37,623 bases of DNA from a virus (taxonomy: Duplodnaviria; Heunggongvirae; Uroviricota; Caudoviricetes): IMG/VR virus record IMGVR_UViG_2645727529_000001, positions 1 through 37,623 of that record; one strand, written 5' to 3'. Every line of letters starts with the position of its first letter. The stretch's first letter is position 1. Shown piece by piece: positions 3,949 to 27,479 of the stretch. A model generated the notes under the pieces. The model worked only from the letters and a program-made list of their open reading frames with translations. It was not told where the DNA came from and searched no databases. The position numbers and the translations under genes were made by a program.

Positions 3949-4802
3949 GCACCATCCTGAAATGGGCGGGAAATAAAACTGCCATAATGTCCGAACTGAA
4001 AAAACATCTTCCTGCTGGCCCGCGACTGGTTGAACCTTTCGCGGGTTCCTGTGCTGTGATGATGGAGACGGATTATCCCAGCTATCTGGTTGCGGATATT
4101 AATCCTGATTTAATCAACCTCTATAAAAAGGTTGCCGCTGATTGTGAATCGTTTATATCTCGCGCCAGAGTTTTATTTGAGATCGCAAACAGGGAGGTGG
4201 CTTATTACAACATAAGGCAGGAGTTTAATTACTCAACTGAAATTACTGATTTCATGAAAGCGGTATATTTCCTGTATCTCAATCGTCACGGTTACCGTGG
4301 TTTATGTCGCTATAACAAGAGCGGGCATTTCAACATTCCCTACGGTAATTATAAAAATCCGTATTTCCCTGAAAAAGAAATTCGCGCATTTGCAGAAAAG
4401 GCCCAGCGAGCAACGTTTATCTGCGCCAGCTTTGATGAAACGCTGGCGATGTTGAAGGCGGGGGATGTGGTGTATTGCGATCCGCCGTATGACGGTACGT
4501 TTTCCGGCTATCACACTGACGGCTTCACTGAAGATGACCAGTATCACCTGGCATCTGTTCTTGAACATCGGTCATCAGAAGGACATCCGGTCATTGTTTC
4601 TAACAGTGACACATCCCTGATCCGTTCGCTGTATCGCAATTTTACTCACCACTACATCAAGGCAAAACGCAGCATCGGTGTGGCAGCTGGCGAGGGTAAA
4701 TCAGCAACAGAAATCATCGCTGTTTCCGGGCCGCGCTGCTGGGTAGGATTTGATCCTTCGCGTGGCGTGGATTGTTCCGTCGTGTACGGAGTGCGTGCAT
4801 GA
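3945..4802 (+). CDS. dam: DNA adenine methyltransferase (Dam family)
   Basis: N-terminal LKWAGNK AdoMet motif and DPPY motif ([10 protein letters not shown]); ATG 3945 overlaps the TraR-like stop. Confidence 0.85.
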
Positions 4803-7213
4803 GCTATGCTGATATGAACAACTGCAGCGGCTTTAACGAGGTCGCCGCAGCATTCTCATGGAACAGCCCGAAAAAGGCCATTAACCCTTATCTGGACCCG
4901 GCGGAAGTTGCGCCGGTTTCTGCGCTTTCAAACCTGATCACTCTATACGCTGCCGATAACGAGCAGGAACAACTGCGCCGCGAGGCACTGAGTGATCAGG
5001 TCTGGGAGCGTTATTTCTTTAATGAATCCCGTGATCCTGTCCAACGCGAAATGGAGCAGGATAAGCTAATTAGCCGGGCAAAGCTGGCGCATGAGCAGCA
5101 GCGTTTTAATCCAGACATGGTCATTCTGGCGGACGTTAACGCCCAGCCTTCCCATATCAGCAAGCCGCTGATGCAACGTATTGAATACTTCAGCAGCCTG
5201 GGCAGGCCAAAGGCTTATTCCCGCTATTTGCGTGAGACGATTAAGCCATGTCTGGAACGACTGGAGCATGTACGCGACAGTCAGCTATCCACTTCTTTTC
5301 GCTTTATGGCAAGCCATGAAGGGCTGGACGGCCTGCTGATCCTGCCTGAAATGAGTCAGGATCAGGTGAAGCGCCTGTCTACCCTTGTTGCCGCGCATAT
5401 GAGCATGTGCCTTGATGCAGCTTGTGGTGATTTGTATGCCACCGATGACGTTAAGCCAGAAGAAATCCGCAAGACATGGGAAAGGGTGGCGGCGGAAACC
5501 CTGCGTCTGGATGTCATCCCTCCTGCGTTTGAGCAACTCCGCCGGAAAAGAAACCGCCGTAAACCCGTACCCTATGAACTCATTCCGGGTTCGCTGGCGC
5601 GTATGTTGTGCGCCGACTGGTGGTATCGGAAATTATGGAAGATGCGTTGCGAATGGCGGGAAGAGCAGTTGCGTGCTGTTTGCTTGGTCAGCAAAAAAGC
5701 ATCTCCCTATGTCAGCTATGAAGCCGTGATGCATAAACGTGAGCAGCGCCGTAAGTCGCTGGAGTTTTTCCGTTCTCATGAACTGGTGAACGAAGACGGC
5801 GACACGCTGGATATGGAGGACGTGGTAAACGCCAGTAGTAGCAACCCGGCGCATCGCCGCAATGAGATGATGGCATGTGTTAAAGGTCTGGAGCTTATCG
5901 CGGAAATGCGCGGTGACTGCGCCGTTTTCTACACCATCACCTGTCCGTCACGTTTCCATTCCACGCTAAATAACGGCAGGCCCAACCCGACTTGGACAAA
6001 TGCGACGGTAAGACAAAGCAGTGATTATCTGGTCGGCATGTTTGCTGCATTTCGTAAGGCGATGTACAAAGCCGGATTGCGCTGGTATGGCGTGCGGGTG
6101 GCTGAGCCGCATCATGACGGTACAGTTCACTGGCACCTGTTGTGTTTTATGCGCAAAAAAGACCGCCGCGCCATCACTGCATTACTGCGTAAGTTTGCCA
6201 TCCGTGAAGACCGCGAGGAGCTGGGCAATAACACGGGGCCGCGCTTTAAGTCTGAGTTGATTAACCCGCGCAAAGGAACGCCGACAAGCTACATCGCGAA
6301 ATATATCAGTAAGAACATTGACGGGCGTGGTCTGGCTGGCGAGATCAGCAAGGAAACGGGTAAATCCCTGCGTGATAACGCTGAATACGTGAATGCCTGG
6401 GCGTCTCTGCATCGTGTTCAGCAATTCCGCTTCTTTGGCATTCCGGGGCGTCAGGCTTACCGTGAACTGCGATTGCTGGCTGGTCAGGCGGCAAGGCAAC
6501 AGGGTGACAAAAAAGCAGGTGCGCCGGTACTGGATAACCCGCGCCTTGATGCAATCCTGGCTGCTGCTGATGCTGGTTGTTTTGCCACCTACATCATGAA
6601 GCAGGGCGGCGTACTGGTTCCCCGTAAATATCACCTCATCAGAACTGCTTATGAAATCAACGAAGAGCCGACCGCCTATGGCGATCACGGCATTCGTATT
6701 TATGGCATCTGGTCACCTATTGCAGAGGGCAAGATCTGCACTCATGCCGTGAAGTGGAAAATGGTTCGTAAGGCCGTTGACGTTCAGGAGGCGGCAGCCG
6801 ACCAGGGCGCTTGCGCCCCTTGGACTCGTGGCAATAACTGTCCCCTTGCTGAAAATTTGAACCAACAGGAGAAAGATAAATCAGCTGATGGGGACCCCAG
6901 AACGGACATTACCAGCATGGATGACAAGGAGTTGCACGATTACCTGCACAGTATGAGCAAAAAAGAGCGCCGGGAACTGGCAGCAAGGTTACGCCTGGTG
7001 AAACCGAAACGGCGTAAAGACTACAAACAGCGAATTACAGACCATCAGCGACTGCAGCTCGTGTATGAGCTGAAGTCCAGAGGATTTGATGGCAGCGAGA
7101 AAGAGGTTGATTTACTCCTTCGCGGAGGCAGTATTCCGTCAGGAGCAGGCCTGCGTATCTTCTATCGGAACCAGCGTTTGCAGGAAGATGATCAGTGGCG
7201 GAACCTGTATTAA
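4799..7213 (+). CDS. A: Replication initiation endonuclease gpA (rolling-circle HUH type)
   Basis: HUH-like HWH ([10 protein letters not shown]) and Tyr motif YIAKYISK; about 800 aa; ATG 4799 overlaps the dam stop. Confidence 0.9.
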
Positions 7214-7305: not shown

Positions 7306-7325
7306 TACTGTAAATATAAACAGTG
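7306..7325. promoter_or_regulatory. LexA (SOS) box
   Basis: TACTGTAAATATAAACAGTG: CTGT-N8-ACAG, matching the LexA consensus at every position that defines it; about 40 nt upstream of the tum-like ORF. Confidence 0.7.
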
Positions 7326-7366: not shown

Positions 7367-7555
7367 ATGCAGGACTATTTTTTGGAGTCTTTGAAGCTCC
7401 AGCGCATTGATTTTTTTCTTAAGCTTGTAGCGGCTAGTGAGTGTAGTGATGAAGAGAAGGGGCTGGCTTTGCAGTGGGTTTCTGAACTAACAGATGAACT
7501 CATGGCAAAAATCAGAACCCACGAATACAACCGCTCAATGGATGTCATCAGTTGA
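7367..7555 (+). CDS. Small SOS-controlled protein (62 aa), possible Tum-like antirepressor N-terminal module
   Basis: AGGAGG RBS 4-9 nt upstream of ATG 7367; directly downstream of the LexA box; occupies the 186 tum position. Confidence 0.45.
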   Translation: MQDYFLESLKLQRIDFFLKLVAASECSDEEKGLALQWVSELTDELMAKIRTHEYNRSMDVIS

Positions 7556-7565
7556 GGTGACTTTT

Positions 7566-7799
7566 ATGCGCATTGAAATAATGATCGATAAAGAGCAGAA
7601 GATTAGCCAGTCTATCCTGGACGCCCTTGAATCCGAGCTTTACCGCAATCTGCGCCCCCTGTATCCCAAAACGGTAATCCGTATCCGTAAAGGTAGCTCT
7701 AACGGTGTGGAACTTACCGGACTGCAACTGGACGAAGAAAGAAAACAAGTGATGAAAATTATGCAGAAAGTGTGGGAAGACGACAGCTGGCTGCATTAA
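7566..7799 (+). CDS. DinI-family protein
   Basis: 77 aa, MRIEIMIDK...ILQ..WEDDSWL resembles E. coli DinI in length and conserved C-terminus; GAGG RBS. Confidence 0.75.
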   Translation: MRIEIMIDKEQKISQSILDALESELYRNLRPLYPKTVIRIRKGSSNGVELTGLQLDEERKQVMKIMQKVWEDDSWLH

Positions 7800-7807
7800 G
7801 AAACGTT

Positions 7808-7837
7808 GCCCCCAAGAAGATTCATTCGAATGGGGGC
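7808..7837 (+). terminator. Hairpin after the dinI-like gene (7-bp G/C stem), weak terminator candidate
   Basis: gccccca...tgggggc inverted repeat; no strong U-tract. Confidence 0.3.
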
Positions 7838-8127
7838 TAGTTTGGGCAATGAGTGAAATAAGGCGTAAGGCGTAAGGTGGGGGGGCATTTTGATAAATGA
7901 TCGTCCGCTTTGTGCCAGAAGCGAACGTTTCTTCTGCTATCTTTCGTCAATTAACGAATGGCAGACTAATTTGCAACGGATAATCTGAATTTTGTAAGAT
8001 TATGGGTATTCCTATAATATTTACCAATAATAACCTTACAATGTACACTACCTATTGAATTTTCCATAGTTGGCCTTTGGCTCTACTTACCATCTATGTT
8101 TATGTATTTTATCAAAATGGACTAAAA

Positions 8128-10020
8128 ATGCACAATACGTACATCAAAGACTATATAGAATATTACCTTAGCCTTAAAACTGAACCTCAATACGCCATTA
8201 TGCTTAAAGGTGCTTGGGGATCAGGTAAAACTTGGTTCATTGAACGAGTTCTTGAAGAATATAAGCAAAAGCATTCAGAGTTCAAATTTCTTAAAGTGAG
8301 TTTGTATGGCGTCAACTCTATTGAGCAGATTGAAGATGAGTTCTATCGTCAACTTCATCCTATTCTATCAAACAAAGCCCTTATCTTTGGTGCAAATGTA
8401 CTAAAAAATACGCTTAAGGCTACTTTCAAGATCGATTTCAATGGCGATAATAAGTCTGACGTAGATGTCAATGCCAGTGTCCCCACCATTAATCTTAGCG
8501 ACTTTAGCAGAGAACCAGATGGTTTTGTGCTGGTCTTTGATGATATCGAGAGAGCTGGTATAGATTTACCAATCTTATTTGGATATATAAATCACTTTGT
8601 AGAAGTAAACGGATACAAAGCGATCCTGGTTGCCAATGAAGAAGAAATAATCAACAGAGAAAAGCGAATAAATAATGATGATGAGAAATCTAGCAGTGAA
8701 TACATAAGAACAAAAGAAAAGCTTGTAGGTAAAACATTTGAAGTAACGTCAGATTTACCTAGTGCTTGTAATGTTTTCTTGGGCGTAATTAGTAGTTTAC
8801 ACGTTGCTAATATATTTAAAGAAGATATGCAGACCATAGAACACCTCTATGTGTCGGCGAAATATAATAATCTAAGACATTTGAGGCAGTTCTTTCTTGA
8901 TGTACAACGCATCATTTCCCTTTTGGGAGATAAATATGTCAGCAACGACGATTTTATGAAAGTATTTTTCCAGCAGTTATTAATTTTCTCGATGGAGTAC
9001 CGGGGAGGGAACCTTAACTACGAGGATTTCAATTCAATCGGCAATGTAAATTATAGTATGTTTTTAGATAAAGGGCGTACCAAAACTAAGTATGACATGA
9101 TCGTCGAGAAATATTCATCACCTGTATTAACCGAGACGTTACTGGATGGTGCGTACTGGAGAGAGCTAATCTGTGATGGAAAGGTAACGCATGATCTTCT
9201 CGCTCAGCTGGATATTACGCGATTTTTTAGAAGCACCGATGCCCAAGCATGGGAGTATTTGTGGAACTATCGAGAACTTAATGAAACTATGCTTAATGAA
9301 CAGTACGCCATTGCCAAGGATAATCTATTTTCAGGTAAGATCACTTCCTTAGGTGAACTCCTGATGACCGCGAGTATTTTGCTGGCATTGGCGAAAGAAG
9401 GTTTAACCACAGATGCTGTTGATGACATTATAAATGAGACAAAACATCATATAGATATTTATTACAATGGATTAGGACCTGAAGATATACATCAGGAGTA
9501 TGCGCAAAGACATTATAATGAGTTAATGGCATGGCGTGGCTTTGGTTTTCTTGACAGGGATAGCGATGAATTCAAACTCATTATTGAGCATATTAAGATA
9601 GCGCAGAAGAAACGGTTTGATGAATCAATTCCGGAGTTTGCATTGAAGTTCAGCGATGAGTTGCAAAGAGGGAATTTATCGTTTGTATCTGAATTGTGTC
9701 ATTCTAATAATAGGCAGCTAAATCTTCATAACGTGCCTTTTTTACACTTGGTTTCTCCTGAAGTTTTCATTGAAAGCTATAGGAAACTTGACCCAATCAT
9801 CATGAGGAAACTGGCATTTAGCTTGAGGGATCGTTATTCTGATAGGGATGCCAGAACCAGACTGACCGAAGAATACAACTGGTTGATTAGCCTAAAAGAG
9901 ATAGCTGTAGATTTCACTCAAAACGCAGCCAATAACTCCTTTCAGGTTTTTCATGTAAAGTTTTTTATTGACTATGCACTAACTAATGCAATCAAATTAT
10001 TTACTGAGGGAACTGATTAA
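8128..10020 (+). CDS. KAP-family P-loop NTPase (630 aa), cargo gene at the tin/old-equivalent hotspot
   Basis: Walker A GAWGSGKT near the N-terminus, Walker B-like VLVFDDIERAG; strongly AT-rich versus backbone; single gene with its own terminator. Confidence 0.75.
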   Translation: MHNTYIKDYIEYYLSLKTEPQYAIMLKGAWGSGKTWFIERVLEEYKQKHSEFKFLKVSLYGVNSIEQIEDEFYRQLHPILSNKALIFGANVLKNTLKATFKIDFNGDNKSDVDVNASVPTINLSDFSREPDGFVLVFDDIERAGIDLPILFGYINHFVEVNGYKAILVANEEEIINREKRINNDDEKSSSEYIRTKEKLVGKTFEVTSDLPSACNVFLGVISSLHVANIFKEDMQTIEHLYVSAKYNNLRHLRQFFLDVQRIISLLGDKYVSNDDFMKVFFQQLLIFSMEYRGGNLNYEDFNSIGNVNYSMFLDKGRTKTKYDMIVEKYSSPVLTETLLDGAYWRELICDGKVTHDLLAQLDITRFFRSTDAQAWEYLWNYRELNETMLNEQYAIAKDNLFSGKITSLGELLMTASILLALAKEGLTTDAVDDIINETKHHIDIYYNGLGPEDIHQEYAQRHYNELMAWRGFGFLDRDSDEFKLIIEHIKIAQKKRFDESIPEFALKFSDELQRGNLSFVSELCHSNNRQLNLHNVPFLHLVSPEVFIESYRKLDPIIMRKLAFSLRDRYSDRDARTRLTEEYNWLISLKEIAVDFTQNAANNSFQVFHVKFFIDYALTNAIKLFTEGTD

Positions 10021-10082
10021 CATTTTGTTGATTAACATAGGTAATATTATTAGAAGTACTAGACATGGTCAGTAAAATTATT

Positions 10083-10110
10083 AAAGTCCGCTTCGCTCGA
10101 AGCGGACTTT
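10083..10110 (+). terminator. Intrinsic terminator after the KAP NTPase gene
   Basis: 12-bp perfect stem aaagtccgcttc/gaagcggacttt with a 4-nt loop, followed by a T-rich stretch. Confidence 0.6.
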
Positions 10111-10305
10111 GTGCTTTATAAAAACGAGAGTTTTGTTTTTCAAGCGGTCATTCGGTTACGGGATTTCACTTCCCCCGTAAGTGCATGACTATGCCGCATG
10201 AGATCGCATGATCGTTTGCGGATCGTTTTTGCTAAGGTCCGCCAGAACTGGCGGGCTTTTGCGTAGATCATGCAGGTGCATGAAAACCACTACATAAAGT
10301 GGGCA

Positions 10306-10324
10306 GGCGTGGCGGGGATACGAG
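10306..10324. other. Putative cos (cohesive-end) site
   Basis: GGCGTGGCGGGGATACGAG resembles the P2/186 19-nt cohesive end as I recall it (GGCGAGGCGGGGAAAGCAC); lies in a GC-rich island between the two AT-rich cargo genes, upstream of Q as in P2. Confidence 0.4.
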
Positions 10325-10544
10325 CGCGCGCAACGAGGTGAAATAGCAAAAACTCGGCACAGCCTACGGCCCGCTAGCGGCTTCAAATTGAAATGGTGAG
10401 GTGCAGCAGCAAAAAAAACGCCCCACAGGAAGTTGTTGAGGTTGTTTATTGAGGGAATTGGCTTAAGCGGTAAAACACAAACATTGCAACTTGTGCATGA
10501 AATTGATACATTGTGCGTAATGTATCTATATTGCGGGGTATTTT

Positions 10545-11216
10545 ATGGCTTTCAGAGCGGAAGAAGCAGCAGCATCGAATTTCGAAAATGCTTACAGATA
10601 TCTAGTTCCACAAGGTTCAAATCAGGAGATGCGTTCGAAAGTTAGGGCGAAGCTCAAAGAAATTGTTGAAGAATGTGGGCCAGTAGTGGATGGGTATCCA
10701 GCATGGCATCCTTTTTTGCTGGAAAGAGATAAAGCTATTTGGGCGCCTATGACTCCCAATAATACTCCTAGCTTTAAATACCTGGACCACACGGTCTATT
10801 TCAGGAACGGCATTCTTACCTGTCCTTATGGTCATGGGGTTGATGAATTTATAGCTGGTATAAAACGTCTAAAGCACACGGATGCCCATTTCTCTATTGA
10901 GAAGATTGATGACGTTGTGCTTTATAATGACAACGCCGTCCCGTTGTTAATAAAATGCCATTGGCTTATTTCGGAAGATATGGAAGAGGATGGCACCATT
11001 CCAGCAAAAGCAGCAATTGGATTGATGCTTGAAAGCGAGGTTCCTAACTGGCGGCATGCAGTTTATTGTGAAAATTGGGAAGATATGCGCGGGCAGTTGA
11101 TGGGATATCCGCACGGTGCCAGATCATCTCTATTTGTTAATCAGCAGACAGGACAGAAAATGAAAAACTTCTGGAATCAGCTGATTAAGACCGGAATTCT
11201 TGGGGAAGAGCGATAA
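10545..11216 (+). CDS. Hypothetical protein (223 aa), cargo gene between the cos-like site and the portal gene
   Basis: Clean ORF, lower GC than backbone, followed by a strong terminator; no family recognised by eye. Confidence 0.6.
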   Translation: MAFRAEEAAASNFENAYRYLVPQGSNQEMRSKVRAKLKEIVEECGPVVDGYPAWHPFLLERDKAIWAPMTPNNTPSFKYLDHTVYFRNGILTCPYGHGVDEFIAGIKRLKHTDAHFSIEKIDDVVLYNDNAVPLLIKCHWLISEDMEEDGTIPAKAAIGLMLESEVPNWRHAVYCENWEDMRGQLMGYPHGARSSLFVNQQTGQKMKNFWNQLIKTGILGEER

Positions 11217-11229
11217 TTTCTTGAGGCTT

Positions 11230-11264
11230 AGCAGCGCCTTTAACAAGCAGAGGCGCTGCTTTTT
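11230..11264. terminator. Bidirectional hairpin terminator between the 223-aa gene and Q
   Basis: 10-bp perfect stem agcagcgcct/aggcgctgct followed by a T-run. Confidence 0.65.
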
Positions 11265-11268
11265 AAAT

Positions 11269-12318
11269 TTAGCTATCGTTGTTTGTGTCTATTCCCAGCG
11301 TGTAGGGCTCGAAGCGGATCACCTCTTTACCTAGCCAATAATTCAGCTCCTGCAGCCGCTTTTGCAGCGGCATCAGTTCATTGCGGACGAAGACACGGCT
11401 CGCTTTTTCCACATCCCCAAAACCCCCAACATTATTCGGCATAATCCCCATCATCTGTGGCGGAACACGATGCGCGGCCATCATGTCATCACGACTCACG
11501 CTCTTGATGTTCAGAAATTCATCTTTCGCTGCGACTTCTGACAACGGGATGATCTGAAGCCCGTCCTTTTTGCCGTTAGGCGAGTACATAAACAGGTTGC
11601 GGAAGTTGCCTGGACCTTTGGCGCTTTTCATGGCATTACGGAGGTTGTTTATATCCTCCTGGTTCTGCGCGGCGTCGGTCATGTACATGATGAAGCCTGC
11701 GTGGCTGCCGTTAATGTAATACTTGCGGCGGAACAGCGTGGCGGACTCGTTGAGTAGGGCTGACGGAATGGCAGAAAGATAACCGGGCAGGCCGTAGATC
11801 TCCTGGTTGATATCCGGTTCCATCAGGTGAAAAATGCTGCCTTTCGTGAACTGATACGGTTGCGTGGTCATGCCGTATTGCACAAACCAGTAGGTATCCA
11901 GGTCTAATCCGCGTCGGGTGTATTTTGCCAGGGCAGGTTCAAGGGCGATAACTTCACCGAAGCGGTTCGTGCGTTTCTCCAGGTAGGCGTTACCAAAAAC
12001 CAGATAGTCCTGCACAAAACGTGAAAACGCCTGCTGGCTGAGCAGCGGATGAGGGATGTAGGTGCTGGTCAGTATGTTGCACTTTACGGCAATCGGTGAG
12101 CTGTGGTGCACGGCGGCGCGAAAGGTTCGCGCCAGCCCGTCGAAACTCACTGGTGGCTCATACCAGCGGTCCATCTGTACGCATTCCACATAGTCCAGTA
12201 ATTCGCGGCGGTCCAGAACAGGAACGGGATCACCGAAGCTGAATGCTTCGGCTGAAGTTTGGTTTTTATGCTGGATCTGGTTCGTCGCCGCAGCGCGGTT
12301 TTTCTTACTCTTTCCCAT
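11269..12318 (-). CDS. Q: Portal protein gpQ
   Basis: About 349 aa, P2 Q-like; ATG overlaps the P stop. Confidence 0.9.
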   Translation of the reverse strand: MGKSKKNRAAATNQIQHKNQTSAEAFSFGDPVPVLDRRELLDYVECVQMDRWYEPPVSFDGLARTFRAAVHHSSPIAVKCNILTSTYIPHPLLSQQAFSRFVQDYLVFGNAYLEKRTNRFGEVIALEPALAKYTRRGLDLDTYWFVQYGMTTQPYQFTKGSIFHLMEPDINQEIYGLPGYLSAIPSALLNESATLFRRKYYINGSHAGFIMYMTDAAQNQEDINNLRNAMKSAKGPGNFRNLFMYSPNGKKDGLQIIPLSEVAAKDEFLNIKSVSRDDMMAAHRVPPQMMGIMPNNVGGFGDVEKASRVFVRNELMPLQKRLQELNYWLGKEVIRFEPYTLGIDTNNDS

Positions 12319-14084
12319 CAAAAAATCTCCACAATATTGCTGGTATTGGCGGACTCGCCCTGCAGCGGTTCGTTAAACAGTGCGTGCATTGTTGCCCAGG
12401 CCAGATCGGCATGGCTGGCTTCTTCGCTGCGGCTGGCTTCATAGGTTGGGCGGTTGCCGCTGGCGGTGGTGGCGCGACGGATTGCCATAAATGACTGCGC
12501 TATGTCGGTGTGTCCGGCGTCAAACTCCAGACGACGGTGACTGATAATGTCGTAGGCCTTGAGTACCAGGGCGTTTTTAACGTTGGGGTTGTAGACAAAC
12601 TCCCGGACGGCTGGAAAAAACGCTTTCACGTTCTCGTAAACCCCGTGACCGACACCCGTCGAGTCGATGCCGATATATGTCACGTTGTACTGTTCGGTCA
12701 GTTTTTTGATGGCGTCCGCCTGGGCGCGGAAGTCCATCCCGCGCCACTGGTGGCGCTCAAGAATACGGAACTTACCGCCCGGCACGGCTGGCGGTGCCAC
12801 CACCACGCATCCGGCGCTGTCGCCGTTCTGCGTACCTTTTGCCGGGTCATAACCGATCCACACTTCGCGCCACCCAAACGGGCGAAGGGCCAGTGCATGA
12901 AAGTCGGTCCAGACTTCCCAACTGTCCACCATGCACGCCTGCAGCTCGCTGAGCGGAAACACGGACGCGAGATCGTCCACAAACTCGCACATCAGCAGGT
13001 TCTGGTATTCGTCCGGGCTGTACTCCATGCGCAACTGGTCAAGGTCGAACAGGTTGCAGCCGCCGCGCACCGCATCTTCCACGGTGACTATCTGGCGGTA
13101 TTGCCCGTCTGCGCACAGCAGGCCGGGGGCCAGATTGCTGTGGGACAGGTCGATGTCCACCTTGTCAGCTTTGTTGCGTCCACGGTTGAACAGCGCACCG
13201 GACCAGAACGGATAAGCACTGTGGGTCAGGCTGGATGGCGTGGAAAAATAGGTTTGTCGCCATTTCTTGTGAATAGCCATCCCGGAAGCCACTTTGCGCA
13301 GCTCCTGGAATTTCGGTATCCAGAAATATTCATCCAGATACAGGTTGCCGTGATAACTCTGGGCCGTGCGGGCATTGGTGCCGAGGAAGTAAAGCGTGGC
13401 TCCGTTAGGAAGCACCATCGGATCGCCTTTTAGCTCCACCTCGACTTCTTTGGCGAAGTCGATGATGTATTGTTTAAAGACGTGGGCCTGAGCCTTACTG
13501 GCAGAAAGGAAAATCTGGTTGCGTCCGGTAAGCAGGGCGTCAATCAGGGCTTCACGGGCAAAATAGAAGGTCGCGCCGATCTGGCGAGACTTCAGCAGGT
13601 TGCGGATGCGGTTGGTTTTTCCGGCTTCCCACCAGTGGCGCTGGTAGTTGAACATGGAGGAATGGAAGATTTCTTCCAGCTTCTCAATCTGCTCATCGGT
13701 GAAAACATTCTTTTCCGGCTGACGGCGTGGGCCTTTATTGCGGTTGGCGACGTTAGGGTTTAAGTCGGCTTCGTTGCCGCCATTGTTAAACTTGCCGATC
13801 CGCGCGTGGCGCTCAGACTGGCGCGCCAGCAGGTCAATCTCTTTGAAATCTTTCCCTTCTTTGTGCTCCTTCATGATGAGCTGGCAGTAGCGTGCTGCGG
13901 TGGTGAGCTGCATCTGGTCCAGCGGCCCATAGTCACCCCACTTGTCGCGTTTTTTCCAGCTGTGAACGGTTGCAACTTTCTCGCCCAGCATTTCAGCAAT
14001 GCGGGCTACGCGGTATCCCTGAAAGTACAGCAGCATGGCCTGCCGACGGGGATCGAGATCTGCGGGTGTCAGTGTGGTGTTCAT
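12318..14084 (-). CDS. P: Terminase large (ATPase) subunit gpP
   Basis: 588 aa, P2 P-like; synteny. Confidence 0.9.
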   Translation of the reverse strand: MNTTLTPADLDPRRQAMLLYFQGYRVARIAEMLGEKVATVHSWKKRDKWGDYGPLDQMQLTTAARYCQLIMKEHKEGKDFKEIDLLARQSERHARIGKFNNGGNEADLNPNVANRNKGPRRQPEKNVFTDEQIEKLEEIFHSSMFNYQRHWWEAGKTNRIRNLLKSRQIGATFYFAREALIDALLTGRNQIFLSASKAQAHVFKQYIIDFAKEVEVELKGDPMVLPNGATLYFLGTNARTAQSYHGNLYLDEYFWIPKFQELRKVASGMAIHKKWRQTYFSTPSSLTHSAYPFWSGALFNRGRNKADKVDIDLSHSNLAPGLLCADGQYRQIVTVEDAVRGGCNLFDLDQLRMEYSPDEYQNLLMCEFVDDLASVFPLSELQACMVDSWEVWTDFHALALRPFGWREVWIGYDPAKGTQNGDSAGCVVVAPPAVPGGKFRILERHQWRGMDFRAQADAIKKLTEQYNVTYIGIDSTGVGHGVYENVKAFFPAVREFVYNPNVKNALVLKAYDIISHRRLEFDAGHTDIAQSFMAIRRATTASGNRPTYEASRSEEASHADLAWATMHALFNEPLQGESANTSNIVEIF

Positions 14085-19680: not shown

Positions 19681-21432
19681 CTATTGGTTGAATATAAAGC
19701 TGATAATATTTTCAGGAGTGAGCTCTATGTTTTTTTTATTAAGTTTTTGAATGTACATTTTATATTTCATTTCAACGTTTCGGAAGCCTTGCGCAACAGA
19801 AAGTATTTCTACAGGATGAGATGAAAGCTTTATTAAGGAGTTAATGACTGCATCTAGGTAGATGTGAGCATGTTCAACTAAAACATTTGTTTTTGATGGG
19901 GTTTTTCCAGTGTGAACTATCAAGTTTCTAGTTCTATATATTCTCCTAATTTGCCAGTTGATTCTTTCTGCATGATTTTTAAGTGCCTGATACATAGTAT
20001 CAGTTGAGGAAATTAAATTGCTAATATATTCAAATCTCTCTTTCAATAACGGAAATTGTGATAGTTCTATCTTAAACTGATTGATGCTAGGGGCATGTTC
20101 TTGCGAAGCAACAAGAATTACAAATGATTTGGCTGCATCGCTATCTCCAATTAGTCTTAGAAGTGACATGGTTCGAGGATGATTCCATCGTTGTAAGTCT
20201 TTTATAAGATTCCTTACTAGGTCTTCAATATAATTCAGGTTTAAAAATGGTGTTAATGAATTAACGATATGTTCTATCGTGGATTGTTCTTCTTTTTTTG
20301 ATTCGTCGGGGATGAGTGATTCAATAGCAATCCATAAATTTAAAAGCTGATTTTCTACAGCATTTGTCTGTAGTGCCATTGAATGTAATTGTACACTTCT
20401 TATGAATTTATTGAAAGAATCCTTGCGCATTCTGAAATTATTCATGAATTGTTCGAGTCTTCTGCTTGCGTGTTCCTGAACCAGATCCTTGCAGCGGTGC
20501 ATTGGGTTTATGCTGCTTCTTATATTGATTTTTTCACCATTTTCACTAACTACAATGTTCTCTGCAGACCATGATGCTTCTTGCTTATGATGATAGAGAG
20601 AAAGCAAAGTTGATGCGAGCTTTAAGTTTCTTTCAGCTACCCTTCTAGCCGTGAATGGATCAAGTGCTTTAACATGCTTAACTAAAATAGTTCGTTGTTC
20701 ATGATTATCGAAGAAATCTGTTTCATTAATATTTTCGGGGGTTTCAAGAACAACCTCAATTTCTAATTGTGATAAGCATGGAGTAATATAACTAAAAGAT
20801 TTTTCAGCATTGAAATAAACTGAATATTCTTGTGTCTCTGAGGGGATGTTCTCTAGGAATGTAATAATCTCTTCATTTGAACTGATCTCTCGTTCTCTTT
20901 GGAAGAAATGTTTTTTTAGACTTTCCATCAAATATTCTTGACTTAATCCTTTTGATATTAGATGGGTAATCAACAGTCTTGTAAACTTTCGAATTTTATT
21001 TGGGTTGTATTCTGAAGTTATTGTAGAGCAAAGTTCACTGATGAGTTTGCTTTCATAATTACCAACATTAAGTTGAACTCTCAGTAACTCAAGAGTTATT
21101 TTTAGATTTTTATTTCCTAACTGATTGTTTTGGAGTTGATCTAAAAATGAACCTAAAGGGTTTTTTAGAAGACTGATTGCGATGTCATCATTCTTAATAT
21201 TTTTAGTTAATTCGTCAATGACGTGGGATATATGTGCGGGGCTTATGTTGCCTTTTTCTATATCATCGATTGTTGATATTGCTTCTATACATAAACTTGG
21301 AGTGTTCATTATAGAAGGTTTATATGTACTATGGGTGTAATCAAAGAGAAGTTCCTCCATTAACTCGGTGAAATAAATAAGCGCAGTGCATTGTTCAATA
21401 TGATTCCAGTTGTGTAGTCTTCTAAATTTCAT
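19681..21432 (-). CDS. Large AT-rich cargo protein with C-terminal HEPN-like Rx4H motif; candidate abortive-infection or defence RNase
   Basis: ORF 19681..21552 (TTG start); preferred ATG at 21432 (MKFRRL...) leaves the P_V promoter region free; motif RIYRTRNLIVHTG near the C-terminus; convergent with S and divergent from V at the P2 orf30 position. Confidence 0.6.
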   Translation of the reverse strand: MKFRRLHNWNHIEQCTALIYFTELMEELLFDYTHSTYKPSIMNTPSLCIEAISTIDDIEKGNISPAHISHVIDELTKNIKNDDIAISLLKNPLGSFLDQLQNNQLGNKNLKITLELLRVQLNVGNYESKLISELCSTITSEYNPNKIRKFTRLLITHLISKGLSQEYLMESLKKHFFQREREISSNEEIITFLENIPSETQEYSVYFNAEKSFSYITPCLSQLEIEVVLETPENINETDFFDNHEQRTILVKHVKALDPFTARRVAERNLKLASTLLSLYHHKQEASWSAENIVVSENGEKINIRSSINPMHRCKDLVQEHASRRLEQFMNNFRMRKDSFNKFIRSVQLHSMALQTNAVENQLLNLWIAIESLIPDESKKEEQSTIEHIVNSLTPFLNLNYIEDLVRNLIKDLQRWNHPRTMSLLRLIGDSDAAKSFVILVASQEHAPSINQFKIELSQFPLLKERFEYISNLISSTDTMYQALKNHAERINWQIRRIYRTRNLIVHTGKTPSKTNVLVEHAHIYLDAVINSLIKLSSHPVEILSVAQGFRNVEMKYKMYIQKLNKKNIELTPENIISFIFNQ

Positions 21433-21476
21433 ATTAATACCTTGTTTTGTGAAGCTTGAATTTACCTTTAGCGCAT

Positions 21477-21498
21477 TGTTTGTTGCTTCATACAAACA
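21477..21498. promoter_or_regulatory. Ogr/Delta-type late-promoter site(s) for P_V (two overlapping TGT-N12-ACA dyads)
   Basis: TGT 21477-21479 with ACA 21492-21494, and TGT 21481-21483 with ACA 21496-21498; 43-64 nt upstream of the V start. Confidence 0.55.
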
Positions 21499-21540
21499 TG
21501 GTTTGTTTGTGATCTCAAGTGTTTGATTAAGAATTTGAGA

Positions 21541-22119
21541 ATGAACGTACAACTCACGGAAATCATGCGCCTTATCACCAATCTGATCCGCACAGGGGTA
21601 GTCACCGAAGTGGACCGGGAAAACTGGCTTTGCAGGGTGAAAACGGGCGAGCTTGAAACCAACTGGATCAGCTGGCTGACGCTACGTGCCGGAAATGCCC
21701 GGACATGGTGGCGACCATCGGAAGGTGAGCAGGTGGTGCTGCTGAGTCTGGGAGGCAATCTGGAAACCGCCTTTGCGTTGCCCGCTGTCTATTCGAATCA
21801 GTTCGCGCCACCTTCGACGTCGGCGGACGCCTGCGTGACAGAACATCCTGACGGTGGCTGGTTTGAATACGAACCCGCCACCGGGCGCTGGTATGTCAGG
21901 GGCATCAAATCCATGGTCATTGAGGCTGCCGACAACATCACCCTGAAAACCAGTGAGTTTGTGCTGGAGGCTGACCGCACGCGTATTAACAGCGAAGTAG
22001 TGATCAATGGTGGTGTTACCCAGGGCGGCGGTGCAATGAGTTCTAACGGAATTGTGGTTGATGCACATCAGCATACTGGCGTCCTGAAAGGCGGCGACAC
22101 AACCGGAGGCCCGGTATGA
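21541..22119 (+). CDS. V: Baseplate spike protein gpV
   Basis: ATG 21541; P2 V-like. Confidence 0.85.
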   Translation: MNVQLTEIMRLITNLIRTGVVTEVDRENWLCRVKTGELETNWISWLTLRAGNARTWWRPSEGEQVVLLSLGGNLETAFALPAVYSNQFAPPSTSADACVTEHPDGGWFEYEPATGRWYVRGIKSMVIEAADNITLKTSEFVLEADRTRINSEVVINGGVTQGGGAMSSNGIVVDAHQHTGVLKGGDTTGGPV

Positions 22120-25473: not shown

Positions 25474-26075
25474 TGCATAAAGCAATATTAAATAGTGAGC
25501 TTATTGCAACAAAGGCAGGGGATGTTACCGTTTATAACTACGATGGTGAAACACGGGAATATATTTCCACGTCAACTGAATATCTTGCTGTTGGTGTCGG
25601 TATTCCGGCATGTTCCTGTCTTGATGCACCTGGCATACATAAGGTTGGTTATGCAATCTGTCGTTCTGTGAATTTAAATTCATGGGAATATGTGCCAGAT
25701 CATCGCGGTGAAATCGTCTATAGCACCGAAACAGGAGAATCGAAAGAAATCACAGCTCCGGGTGATTATCCTGAAAATACAACCACTATCGCCCCGTTAA
25801 CGCCATACGATGAATGGAATGGTGAGAAATGGGTGACAGATACCGAGGCACAGCACGGCGCAGCAGTAGATGCAGCAGAAGCACAGCGCCCGTTGCTGAT
25901 TGATACTGCAATGGCCTCCATCAGTCTGATTCAACTGAAATTACAGGCCGGACGGAAGCTGACGCAGGCAGAAACAATCCGCCTTAACGCTGTGCTGGAT
26001 TACATTGACGCGGTGACGGCAACAGATACCAGCACAGCGCCGGATGTCATCTGGCCTGAACTGCCGGAGGCGTAG
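25473..26075 (+). CDS. G: Tail fibre assembly chaperone gpG (expressed orientation)
   Basis: 200 aa; follows H with ATGA overlap; G-like conserved C-terminus. Confidence 0.8.
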   Translation: MHKAILNSELIATKAGDVTVYNYDGETREYISTSTEYLAVGVGIPACSCLDAPGIHKVGYAICRSVNLNSWEYVPDHRGEIVYSTETGESKEITAPGDYPENTTTIAPLTPYDEWNGEKWVTDTEAQHGAAVDAAEAQRPLLIDTAMASISLIQLKLQAGRKLTQAETIRLNAVLDYIDAVTATDTSTAPDVIWPELPEA

Positions 26076-26508
26076 GCCATTCAATATCTGGCGCACCGGA
26101 AGTATCGATCAGCTCCAGTGCGTCCAGATAATCCAGCCACAAATTATATTGTGCCAGTTCCTCACCTTTCAGACGACCGATAGCTGCTTTACCAGGCCAT
26201 TGCTTACCGTTCATGTATTCGTTGGCATGGTCAATTCTCGACTTTTTCTCTGAGTCAGCCGCAGCAAGTTGTTCTTTATGCGTAGGTGACGGAAGATCTA
26301 CCCAGCAAGGCAACCCATCATCACCAATGCCACGCATTTTACCCTCAGGAGCGTTTCCCATGAAAACCAGTGCATCTTCAGCATTTATATTGATGCCGTC
26401 TGACGGCCATGTGCCAGCAGTTAAATAATCATATTTCAGTGCCACAAGATAAAAAGCATTTTCCGTCGGGCTGAATACATAGTCGACCATTAATATCCCA
26501 CTCCCCAT
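26047..26508 (-). CDS. Alternative tail fibre assembly chaperone (G'), inverted cassette
   Basis: 153 aa; C-terminus (...DALELIDTSGAPDIEWP) parallels G (...DAVTATDTSTAPDVIWP); opposite strand inside the invertible segment. Confidence 0.7.
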   Translation of the reverse strand: MGSGILMVDYVFSPTENAFYLVALKYDYLTAGTWPSDGININAEDALVFMGNAPEGKMRGIGDDGLPCWVDLPSPTHKEQLAAADSEKKSRIDHANEYMNGKQWPGKAAIGRLKGEELAQYNLWLDYLDALELIDTSGAPDIEWPTPPAVQAR

Positions 26509-26846
26509 ACTGCCACTGTTGAATTAGATTTCGTGTATGCGCAAGCGGCTTTGAATTTGACCCGGTCAACAATCGCTGCGCTAACAAAAGGGGCTCCATT
26601 AGTCGCGTAGATCACAGAATTGACCAGCGAAGGATTGATGGAAAGGCAAGCATTAGGAAAGGCAACCGGCCATGAGTCATCAACAACGACCATATTACCG
26701 TCGGTAGATTGCGGCACTGATAGCGTCTTCCACTGAAGCAATGCTATTCGTTGTACTCCACCAATTAATACTGGAATAGTGATGTTACCTGCACTGCTGG
26801 CTAATGCTGTCGCAGCAGGCATTTTCGCTGCTTCTCCCAAACCAAC
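26490..26846 (-). CDS. Alternative tail fibre C-terminal cassette (Hv'), silent in this orientation
   Basis: Minus-strand ORF whose VGLGE codons coincide with the right hix-like site, mirroring LGLGE of H at the left site; would fuse to the H constant part after inversion. Confidence 0.6.
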   Translation of the reverse strand, partial: VGLGEAAKMPAATALASSAGNITIPVLIGGVQRIALLQWKTLSVPQSTDGNMVVVDDSWPVAFPNACLSINPSLVNSVIYATNGAPFVSAAIVDRVKFKAACAYTKSNSTVAVWGVGY

Positions 26847-26857
26847 GTTTATGAAAA
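26832..26857. repeat. hix/gix-like 26-bp inversion crossover site (right)
   Basis: TTCTCCCAAACCAACGTTTATGAAAA; inner 14 bp are the exact inverted repeat of 25013-25026. Confidence 0.65.
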
Positions 26858-26906
26858 TGCAGAGATAACGGCTAACTGGCATCATCTCCGGTTTTTATTC
26901 AGGGGG

Positions 26907-27479
26907 ATGATCATGCTTATTGGCTATGTACGCGTGTCAACAAATGACCAGAACACCGATTTGCAACGCAATGCACTGAACTGTGCGGGATGTGAGCGGA
27001 TTTTTGAGGATAAAATCAGTGGCACCAAGTCCGACAGACCGGGGCTGAAAAAGCTGCTCAGGACACTATCGGCAGGAGACACGCTGGTTGTCTGGAAGCT
27101 GGACAGACTGGGGCGCAGTATGCGGCATCTTGTTACGCTGATAGAAGAGCTGCGCCAGCGTGGCGTGAATTTCCGAAGCCTGACTGACAGTATTGATACC
27201 AGCACCCCAATGGGCCGTTTCTTTTTTCATGTCATGGGTGCCCTGGCTGAAATGGAACGCGAACTGATAGTTGAACGTACCAGGGCGGGGCTGGCTGCAG
27301 CTCGTGCTAAAGGCAGAGTAGGTGGACGCCGTCCTAAGTTGACCAGCGAACAGTGGGCACAGATTGGGCGTTTACTCGAGGCCGGAGAATCAAGACAGCG
27401 TATTGCACTGATTTTTGATGTAGGCGTTTCTACCATTTATCGAAAATTTCCGGCAAATAAGAACAATAAATCTCCCTGA
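26907..27479 (+). CDS. Serine DNA invertase (Hin/Gin/Pin/Cin family)
   Basis: N-terminal IGYVRVSTNDQNTDLQ resolvase catalytic motif and C-terminal HTH; AGGGGG RBS favours the ATG at 26913. Confidence 0.9.
   Translation: MIMLIGYVRVSTNDQNTDLQRNALNCAGCERIFEDKISGTKSDRPGLKKLLRTLSAGDTLVVWKLDRLGRSMRHLVTLIEELRQRGVNFRSLTDSIDTSTPMGRFFFHVMGALAEMERELIVERTRAGLAAARAKGRVGGRRPKLTSEQWAQIGRLLEAGESRQRIALIFDVGVSTIYRKFPANKNNKSP

Follow-up and report, generated by a model that had tools for sequence, protein, structure and literature searches.

The KAP family of P-loop nucleoside triphosphatases (NTPases) takes its name from Kidins220/ARMS and from PifA, the F plasmid protein that excludes phage T7 (PMC12632615). 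KAP-type NTPases have been validated as anti-phage proteins only recently, with EF_KAP and Reve, and none has a known mechanism. EF_KAP of E. faecalis and related KAP NTPases from gut metagenomes protect E. faecalis from phage and need their Walker B motif; in the view of the authors, the NTPase regulates a fused effector of unknown kind (PMC12632615). Reve, encoded by construct pFD425, is a single-gene KAP P-loop defence from a P4-satellite hotspot that strongly protects E. coli against Drexlerviridae and lowers the plaquing of some of them as much as about 10^5-fold (Moura de Sousa et al. 2026; 10.64898/2026.02.27.708500). In P2-like phages, the gpA-gpQ locus is a hypervariable, validated hotspot of defence genes (PMC9122126; PMC9519451). 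Here we analyse a stretch of viral DNA of 37,623 nucleotides (nt) (IMG/VR record IMGVR_UViG_2645727529_000001, positions 1 to 37,623; the window hereafter), which is an E. coli prophage of P2/186-like type and which carries a KAP gene (8128-10020, + strand) in the dinI-to-cos half of this hotspot. Taken as a whole, the analysis makes it probable that the gene is a single-gene KAP anti-phage candidate of the PDC-S49 family, carried as a self-contained cassette and acting as an NTP-dependent switch.

The gene encodes a protein of 630 amino acids (aa) in an open reading frame (ORF) whose ATG at 8128 is nested in a longer frame starting with TTG (8077-10020); the same ATG is the start assigned by RefSeq PGAP to an identical E. 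coli protein, WP_000552034.1, annotated ‘P-loop NTPase fold protein' and encoded in an E. coli locus 99.9% identical to the window. Its GC content is 0.37 overall and 0.34-0.40 along the gene, while the replication gene A stands at 0.53 and the late genes at about 0.55-0.60. The Pfam KAP_NTPase profile (PF07693; Aravind et al. 2004) matched aa 4-262 with 76.9 bits against a cut-off of 20 (E=2 × 10−21; profile positions 3-289 of 293). KAP proteins carry a Walker A motif of the type G-x-W-G-x-G-K-[ST] and a Walker B motif of the type hhhhDDxxR, and both types were found, as GAWGSGKT at aa 28-35 (nt 8209-8232) and as VLVFDDIER (aa 134-142) within VLVFDDIERAG at aa 134-144 (nt 8527-8559). An earlier note on this DNA, written from the letters alone, had described an AT-rich 630-aa ORF with these two motifs and assigned it to the KAP NTPases, a description that the composition, the motifs and the domain search bear out.

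The family is already catalogued as a defence candidate, in the survey of Rousset 2022 and as PADLOC PDC-S49, and the window protein is not new in this respect. PADLOC-DB holds three hidden Markov models (HMMs) for the family, of which PDLC05031 matched over the full length (5.6 × 10−161; aa 2-624 on profile positions 5-615 of 624), followed by PDLC05029 (7.5 × 10−153) and PDLC05030 (1 × 10−88). In Table S5B of Rousset 2022, ‘KAP_NTPase' is P2-hotspot system #8 of the curated list, found 306 times among 18,150 loci and with a representative that starts with MHNTYIKDYIEYYLSLKTEPQYAIMLKGAWGSGKTWF, so that in 2022 this gene ranked eighth in frequency among the curated cargo of P2 hotspots in E. 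coli. In Table S5A, the row with WP_000552034 contains a set of four proteins identical to that of the RefSeq E. coli locus that is 99.9% like the window; the same protein is also paired there with AIPR, and other KAP_NTPase accessions are paired with RES or PIN_12. The 2026 preprint on P2 and P4 counts KAP_NTPase among the hotspot genes not annotated as defence (10.64898/2026.02.27.708500). To these records the present analysis adds the exact boundaries of the cassette, a soluble Lys-rich insert that appears to replace a transmembrane (TM) hairpin, a C-terminal domain that seems locked to its architecture, an orphan by fold and faster in divergence, and a distant link to Reve.

The order of gene A (4772-7213, the gpA equivalent), dinI, KAP gene, cos and portal gene corresponds to that of the P2-like gpA-gpQ hotspot (Rousset 2022; Vassallo 2022), with conserved flanks around a variable content. 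On the left, the conserved flank (7367-7799, + strand; identified by PHROG, Pfam, RefSeq and relatives) consists of a small ORF of 62 aa (7367-7555, + strand; PHROG 698) and the dinI-like gene (7569-7799, + strand; Pfam DinI 1.2 × 10−22, PHROG 189 and the RefSeq annotation of the identical locus). On the right, a cos-like site found by pattern matching (10306-10323, GGCGTGGCGGGGATACGA) lies in a block (10180-10342) that is 93-97% identical among relatives irrespective of their cargo. The site differs at 3 of 18 positions from the searched pattern GGCGNGGCGGGGAAAGCA, which we take to be the P2/186-type cos pattern; since shuffling also yields a match with three mismatches in 9 of 100 cases, it is chiefly the position and the conserved block that support the cos assignment. 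The portal gene, equivalent to P2 Q (11269-12321, − strand; ‘phage portal protein' in RefSeq for the identical locus), forms the right edge of the hotspot.

Comparison of this locus among relatives revealed that the KAP gene is variable cargo rather than a core gene. In a search with the whole interval, the dinI-to-portal flanks were found in 1,260 of 5,426 complete E. coli genomes, yet no more than 46 of these also carry the KAP gene, always on the chromosome, with ≥99% identity in 28 and about 91% in 18; the gene is missing from about 96% of the prophages with the same backbone. The junctions of the slot were determined by blastn against E. coli EC3, phage 500465-1 and a Klebsiella phage. 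The left flank is 97-98% identical in these relatives up to 7809, ten bases past the dinI stop codon, and the conserved cos block starts at 10180, which delimits a variable segment of 2,370 base pairs (bp) at 7810-10179; in EC3 and phage 500465-1 the slot is empty, with 68 bp between the junctions. The position between A and Q, for which hypervariability is documented (PMC9122126; PMC9519451), agrees with the proposal in the earlier note of a hotspot equivalent to that of tin and old, and the exchange of cargo that it expected from a comparison of P2-like prophages was seen at sharp junctions. Its description of the KAP gene as the sole cargo holds for the interval from dinI to cos, where no other gene lies, but not for the gpA-gpQ hotspot as a whole, as a second gene, ORF223 (10545-11216, + strand; 223 aa), occupies the cos-to-portal slot.

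The KAP gene also occurs outside P2-like prophages. A cassette of 7907-10108 (+ strand), comprising 221 bp upstream, the gene and a downstream hairpin, shares 83% DNA identity (blastn) with a copy in Serratia that sits between icd and the integrase gene of a lambdoid prophage; a cassette common to these two prophages evidently moves as a self-contained unit between different kinds of phage. With this, the case that the earlier note had named as a refutation, a conserved core component of 186-like phages, is set aside. The homology with the Serratia copy stops just past the hairpin (10082-10111; GC-rich, 13-bp stem and 4-nt loop, −21.3 kcal/mol, z=−3.6), which therefore marks the 3′ end of the cassette. 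A strong hairpin terminator had been proposed at this place: the hairpin is real and terminator-like, but its T-tract is weak, and it scores on both strands. In Pseudomonas, a member of the family lies in an islet with a serine recombinase. A hidden small ORF or known RNA in the non-coding parts of the cassette was considered and rejected, as these parts held only ORFs of chance size (≤37 aa) and a single Rfam match of 17.7 bits against a gathering score of 100.

The neighbours of the gene vary between hosts: ORF223, RES, AIPR, PIN_12 or none in E. coli, HNH_2 and an integrase in Serratia, and unrelated genes in Pseudomonas and Burkholderia. The gene has no conserved partner, as in the single-gene definition of PDC-S49. 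Two of the loci examined are of interest in their own right. In the lambdoid prophage of Serratia liquefaciens, the KAP cassette lies between icd and the integrase gene with an HNH_2 gene of 299 aa at its side (8794-11893 of the examined stretch), and the two apparently make up a small defence islet at the att-int end. In E. coli WCHEC035148 (NZ_CP029369.1; 1767-6361 of the examined stretch), a P2-like prophage carries at its gpA-gpQ locus a more distant KAP protein, WP_023147874 (614 aa; PDC-S49 HMM 7 × 10−28; 24% identity over 176 aa to the window protein), beside an 883-aa protein with an HsdR N-terminal domain; Table S5A of Rousset lists the pair ‘KAP_NTPase + S1/HSDR_N', and the two proteins may form a two-gene KAP system.

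A search of about 5.8 billion proteins retrieved 333 matches, whose hosts include Enterobacteria, Pseudomonas, Burkholderia, Ralstonia, Methylobacter and Variovorax; the best 120 of these matches are mostly 600-650 aa long with query coverage of at least 90%, and the few shorter ones are apparently partial. Residue conservation was derived from an alignment of 68 homologues, in which W30, G31, G33 and K34, D138, D139, E141 and R142, K198/G201, N248/R250, E290, W375, R569 and E582 are invariant and N170/E171 are conserved in ≥90% of the sequences. Between the window allele and the 91% E. coli allele, the ratio of non-synonymous to synonymous substitution rates (dN/dS) is 0.21 overall, showing that the gene is under purifying selection. 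Along this allele pair, dN climbs from 0.016 (aa 1-79) to about 0.107 (aa 401-630), a roughly sevenfold faster divergence of the C-terminal part; positive selection was considered and is not supported, given that dN/dS is ≤0.37 in every segment and only the divergence is faster.

The AlphaFold2 model of the protein (mean predicted local distance difference test (pLDDT) score 83.9) is confident and has an α/β ATPase core whose strands run in the expected order, followed by an all-helical region at about aa 210-626. Three parts can be distinguished: a KAP_NTPase or AAA+-like ATPase core plus lid (aa 4-262; 8137-8913, + strand) with the Walker A and Walker B motifs, the sensor-1-like N170/E171 and the invariant R250; a Lys-rich insert between the two Walker motifs (aa 80-125; 8365-8502, + strand); and an all-helical, family-specific C-terminal domain (aa ~263-630; 8914-10017, + strand), a putative sensor or scaffold. 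Among solved structures, those nearest in fold to the core belong to replication initiators (Cdc6/Orc1 and ORC) and to ATPases of transposition (TnsC and MuB). The core is also similar to switch ATPases that oligomerise, among them RdrA, Avs3 and BrxC, which are defence proteins. A search of the PDB with the family profile gave no match at E≤1.

The C-terminal part matched no recognisable motif or fold in Pfam, in the PDB profile search or in the structure comparison, as the earlier note had remarked for its motifs. A profile of this domain, searched against 1.84 billion representatives, retrieved 2,894 clusters (50% identity), with E≤10−30 for 1,395 of them, and the domain family is found across Proteobacteria. 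In each of the best 150 matches, the domain starts near residue 200 of a protein of ~600-650 aa, or else the match is a shorter fragment; judging from these sequences, the domain is tied to the KAP architecture and is no shuffled module.

The insert at aa 80-125 is among the best-conserved segments of the protein (K83, K93, K97, K101, D103, D107 and P119 are ≥90% conserved), while its pLDDT in the AlphaFold2 model is below 50, and it may fold only upon partner binding or oligomerisation. Classical KAP NTPases place TM helices at this position, a feature typical of many members although not universal. Such helices are described for KAP proteins (PMC12632615); in the window protein, no TM helix is predicted anywhere (maximum Kyte-Doolittle 19-aa mean, 1.49). 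As the insert is not hydrophobic and TM helices are lacking, the window protein is predicted to be a soluble KAP variant.

These features bear directly on the first alternative, a PifA-like abortive infection in which a phage protein is sensed, the membrane or energy state is damaged and the infected cell dies, the classical mode of action in this family, exemplified by PifA of the F plasmid against T7. Membership in the same Pfam family as PifA (PMC12632615), a conserved amphipathic Lys-rich insert at the usual position of KAP membrane helices and the abortive-infection character of many hotspot neighbours (AbiU, RES and AIPR) would suit such a course, and against these stand the low hydropathy of the protein and the extent of its likeness to PifA: the PADLOC PifA model (720 positions) matched aa 18-57 only, that is, 40 residues at Walker A (E=0.005; 13.4 bits), instead of the full length, and the window protein is for this reason not a PifA orthologue. 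The link to PifA drawn in advance from the sequence consequently survives as common family membership, but not beyond those 40 residues. Furthermore, EF_KAP, the one KAP defence examined for this property, protects equally at low and high multiplicity of infection and is not abortive (PMC12632615). Overall, we regard abortive infection of this type as unlikely.

The second alternative is an accessory ATPase with a role outside defence, in prophage or plasmid maintenance, replication-origin handling, packaging or the interplay between P2 as helper and P4 as satellite. The kinship of the fold with Cdc6/Orc1, ORC, TnsC and MuB, the location of the gene between the replication gene A and cos, the partition systems held by about a quarter of P2 hotspots (PMC9122126) and the lack of an effector domain would all fit such a role. 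Nevertheless, the gene is missing from about 96% of the prophages with this backbone, and its recurrence in a lambdoid prophage and also in islets that are not phage-borne rules out a core process specific to P2; the protein also matches a family, PDC-S49, that was built from association with defence islands, and the low GC content and the mobility of the cassette are what morons and defence genes typically show. With this evidence on both sides, a non-defence ATPase appears improbable. Finally, a two-gene system of a KAP ATPase sensor and an ORF223 effector, suggested by co-occurrence of the two genes in 24 E. coli genomes at ≥99% identity and in rows of Table S5A of Rousset, and by an ORF223 without known function next to a KAP protein without an effector, is very unlikely and was dismissed on account of the variable partnership (a RES gene accompanies the 91% allele and AIPR the identical protein, and no ORF223 lies beside the homologues of Serratia, Pseudomonas and Burkholderia) and of the intervening cos and conserved 160-bp block, which place the genes at opposite ends of the packaged genome, and with the homology between window and Serratia stopping at the hairpin.

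Our main reading is that the KAP gene is a defence gene of the single-protein, NTP-dependent switch kind, which we hold to be somewhat better than even. The evidence for defence is associative, though broad, consisting of the PDC-S49 match, the hotspot location, the defence genes that alternate at this locus, the mobility of the cassette, the homology with Reve and the precedent of EF_KAP. Several observations weigh against it. No experimental test of the window protein or of PDC-S49, and no paper mentioning PDC-S49, was found in the searchable literature, and the window peptide is absent from the supplementary file of Rousset with the sequences of the cloned systems. Five of the eight extra P2-hotspot systems cloned in that study showed no activity, and none of the three active ones is a KAP protein (PMC9122126); location alone is accordingly no proof of defence. 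P2 hotspots also hold non-defence cargo, for example partition systems and toxins (PMC9122126), and the Burkholderia homologue lies alone amid housekeeping-type genes. Similarity to the validated KAP defences is found mostly in the NTPase half; the match between the C-terminal halves of the protein and of Reve is weak (E=0.0095, probability 4%), although none of the 13 controls did as well (best, 0.044). No effector domain of the nuclease, HEPN, TIR, SIR2 or protease kind, as fused to an NTPase in Avs/NLR-like systems, was recognised, and an output role of the Lys-rich insert depends on a region of low confidence in the model.

Because no effector domain is recognisable, we can only infer the steps by which the protein would act. 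In the proposed scheme, the helical, fast-evolving C-terminal domain would sense a phage-derived cue, which would license a nucleotide-dependent assembly or conformational change of the N-terminal ORC/Cdc6/STAND-like ATPase; this step would need K34 of Walker A and D138/D139 of Walker B, and its outcome would be a block of phage propagation. The best candidate for an output surface, in contact with DNA or membrane, would be the Lys-rich insert, which by the model topology appears to lie where initiator-clade AAA+ proteins carry a DNA-contacting insertion. A more specific version is that of an effector-less soluble KAP ATPase in which C-terminal sensing leads to ATP-dependent assembly on phage DNA or on replication or packaging intermediates through the Lys-rich insert, and to a physical block without cell killing. 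We consider this version unlikely; if true, it would be a mechanism not yet described for phage defence, with the Lys-rich insert replacing the ancestral KAP transmembrane hairpin.

Expression of the gene in the lysogen would probably be constitutive, from the upstream region of the cassette itself. The TATAAT at 8013-8018, read in the earlier note as its −10 element, is present, but its use as a promoter was rejected: it lacks an acceptable −35 element, the promoter scan found 10 sites compared with 11.4 in shuffles and hence no excess, and the hexamer is not kept in the Serratia cassette, where another −10-like hexamer is (TACAAT at 8037-8042 in the window, TATAAT in Serratia). A LexA-controlled operon upstream, also foreseen, agrees with a perfect SOS box (CTGTAAATATAAACAG/TACTGTAAATATAAACAGT; 7308-7323, + strand) upstream of the operon of the small ORF and dinI, the only CTGT-N8-ACAG without mismatch in the window, ~45 bp upstream of the 62-aa ORF. 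This box and the region of the 62-aa ORF presumably resemble the LexA-controlled tum region of phage 186. Judged from the sequence, SOS read-through from the dinI operon into the KAP gene is possible; the RNA between the two genes is strongly structured (z=−3.85) and contains no clear intrinsic terminator. At the start of the cargo segment (7800-7940, + strand), the predicted RNA fold of −51.8 kcal/mol (z=−3.85) includes a tandem GGCGTAAGGCGTAAGG followed by a run of seven G residues; this structure may act as an attenuator, mark a recombination junction or have no role at all.

The cos-to-portal slot that holds ORF223 varies independently of the dinI-to-cos slot. Its cargo in relatives is a RES-family gene in KE47, beside the 91% KAP allele, a TIGR02391/PD-Lambda-3_B-like gene in E. 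coli EC3, an AbiU-like gene in the Klebsiella phage and a bSEFIR/TIR fragment in phage 500465-1; across the whole gpA-gpQ locus, the alternative cargo of relatives comprises AbiU, bSEFIR/TIR, PD-Lambda-3_B/HEPN-like, RES, AIPR, PIN_12 and another KAP protein. ORF223, which no family in Pfam, PADLOC, NCBIfam or PHROGs matched, is a member of a family of ~222 aa with 203 homologues, all annotated ‘hypothetical', that extends across Gammaproteobacteria (Enterobacteria, Marinobacter, Halomonas and Acinetobacter). As its slot holds RES, AbiU-like, TIR and PD-Lambda-3_B-like genes in relatives, ORF223 may be an unrecognised defence or anti-defence gene; with 22 of the 46 KAP-positive genomes lacking it, ORF223 is no obligate partner of the KAP gene.

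The remainder of the window holds integrase and CI repressor at the left end, the terminase and then the late genes after the portal gene, and host ybjL/ybjM-like genes at the right end. A second AT-rich island (19681-21552, − strand; GC about 0.33) lies in the late region between tail-completion and baseplate genes, presumably at the position of P2 orf30. Its 622-aa ORF has no Pfam match and matched PADLOC ApeA (2.1 × 10−12; aa 59-573), with which the number of defence-type cargo genes in the prophage probably rises to two or more. In addition, a Hin/Gin-type serine invertase gene (26907-27479; Resolvase 2.3 × 10−53) adjoins tail-fibre-assembly and fibre C-terminal segments on the reverse strand (26047-26885), and the region 26047-27479 looks like an invertible host-range switch.

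Since PDC-S49 is soluble by prediction, encoded by a single gene, well modelled and native to E. coli, it would be a convenient system for studying how KAP defences sense and stop phages, and its relation to known systems can be stated as follows. To PDC-S49 and Rousset system #8 the window protein stands as a member of the same family with essentially the same sequence and locus and no substantive difference. The STAND and AAA+ switch ATPases (Avs, plant NLR resistosomes, RADAR RdrA and BREX BrxC), together with ORC/Cdc6, TnsC and MuB, show TM-scores of 0.2-0.3 and identities of 7-16%; KAP is a separate P-loop family and the C-terminal domain of the window protein matches none of these ATPases, and the likeness concerns a possible mode of working rather than membership. 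The old and tin genes of P2, the reference cargo of the hotspot, occupy the same position (A/dinI to cos/Q) and exclude other phages from within a prophage, the ecological role ascribed here to the KAP gene; the PADLOC scan, which gave only PDC-S49 and the marginal PifA match, showed no sequence relation to them. PifA shares with the window protein the Pfam KAP family and the carriage on a mobile element, and differs in that it is reportedly membrane-associated, whereas the window protein is predicted to be soluble. EF_KAP, which was compared by description only, likewise has a KAP NTPase domain followed by a region of ~320 aa without known domain, but it has two N-terminal TM helices where the window protein has none, and its hosts are Firmicutes.

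A further comparison is that with Reve. The two genes are not the same: a 23-mer of the window gene is absent from the construct sequences of the preprint, and BLAST finds an alignment of no more than 49 residues, around Walker A and with 35% identity. Reve sits on P4 and has been validated experimentally, whereas the window gene sits on P2 and has not, and P2 and P4 almost never swap defence genes (10.64898/2026.02.27.708500). Comparison of Reve with the profile of the window family by hhalign nevertheless gave a collinear match (E=6 × 10−9, probability 95.9%), with E=0.16 or worse for reversed and shuffled controls, and Reve itself matches the PDC-S49 HMM over its NTPase half (2.5 × 10−11; aa 22-277), which indicates at the level of profiles that it is a distant homologue of the window family. 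Like the window protein, Reve is a single protein of ~590-630 aa that lacks TM helices and in which a KAP/AAA ATPase at the N terminus precedes helical sequence of uncharacterised function; it has the ORC motor module as its top structural neighbour and is encoded in a cos-proximal hotspot of the P2/P4 system.

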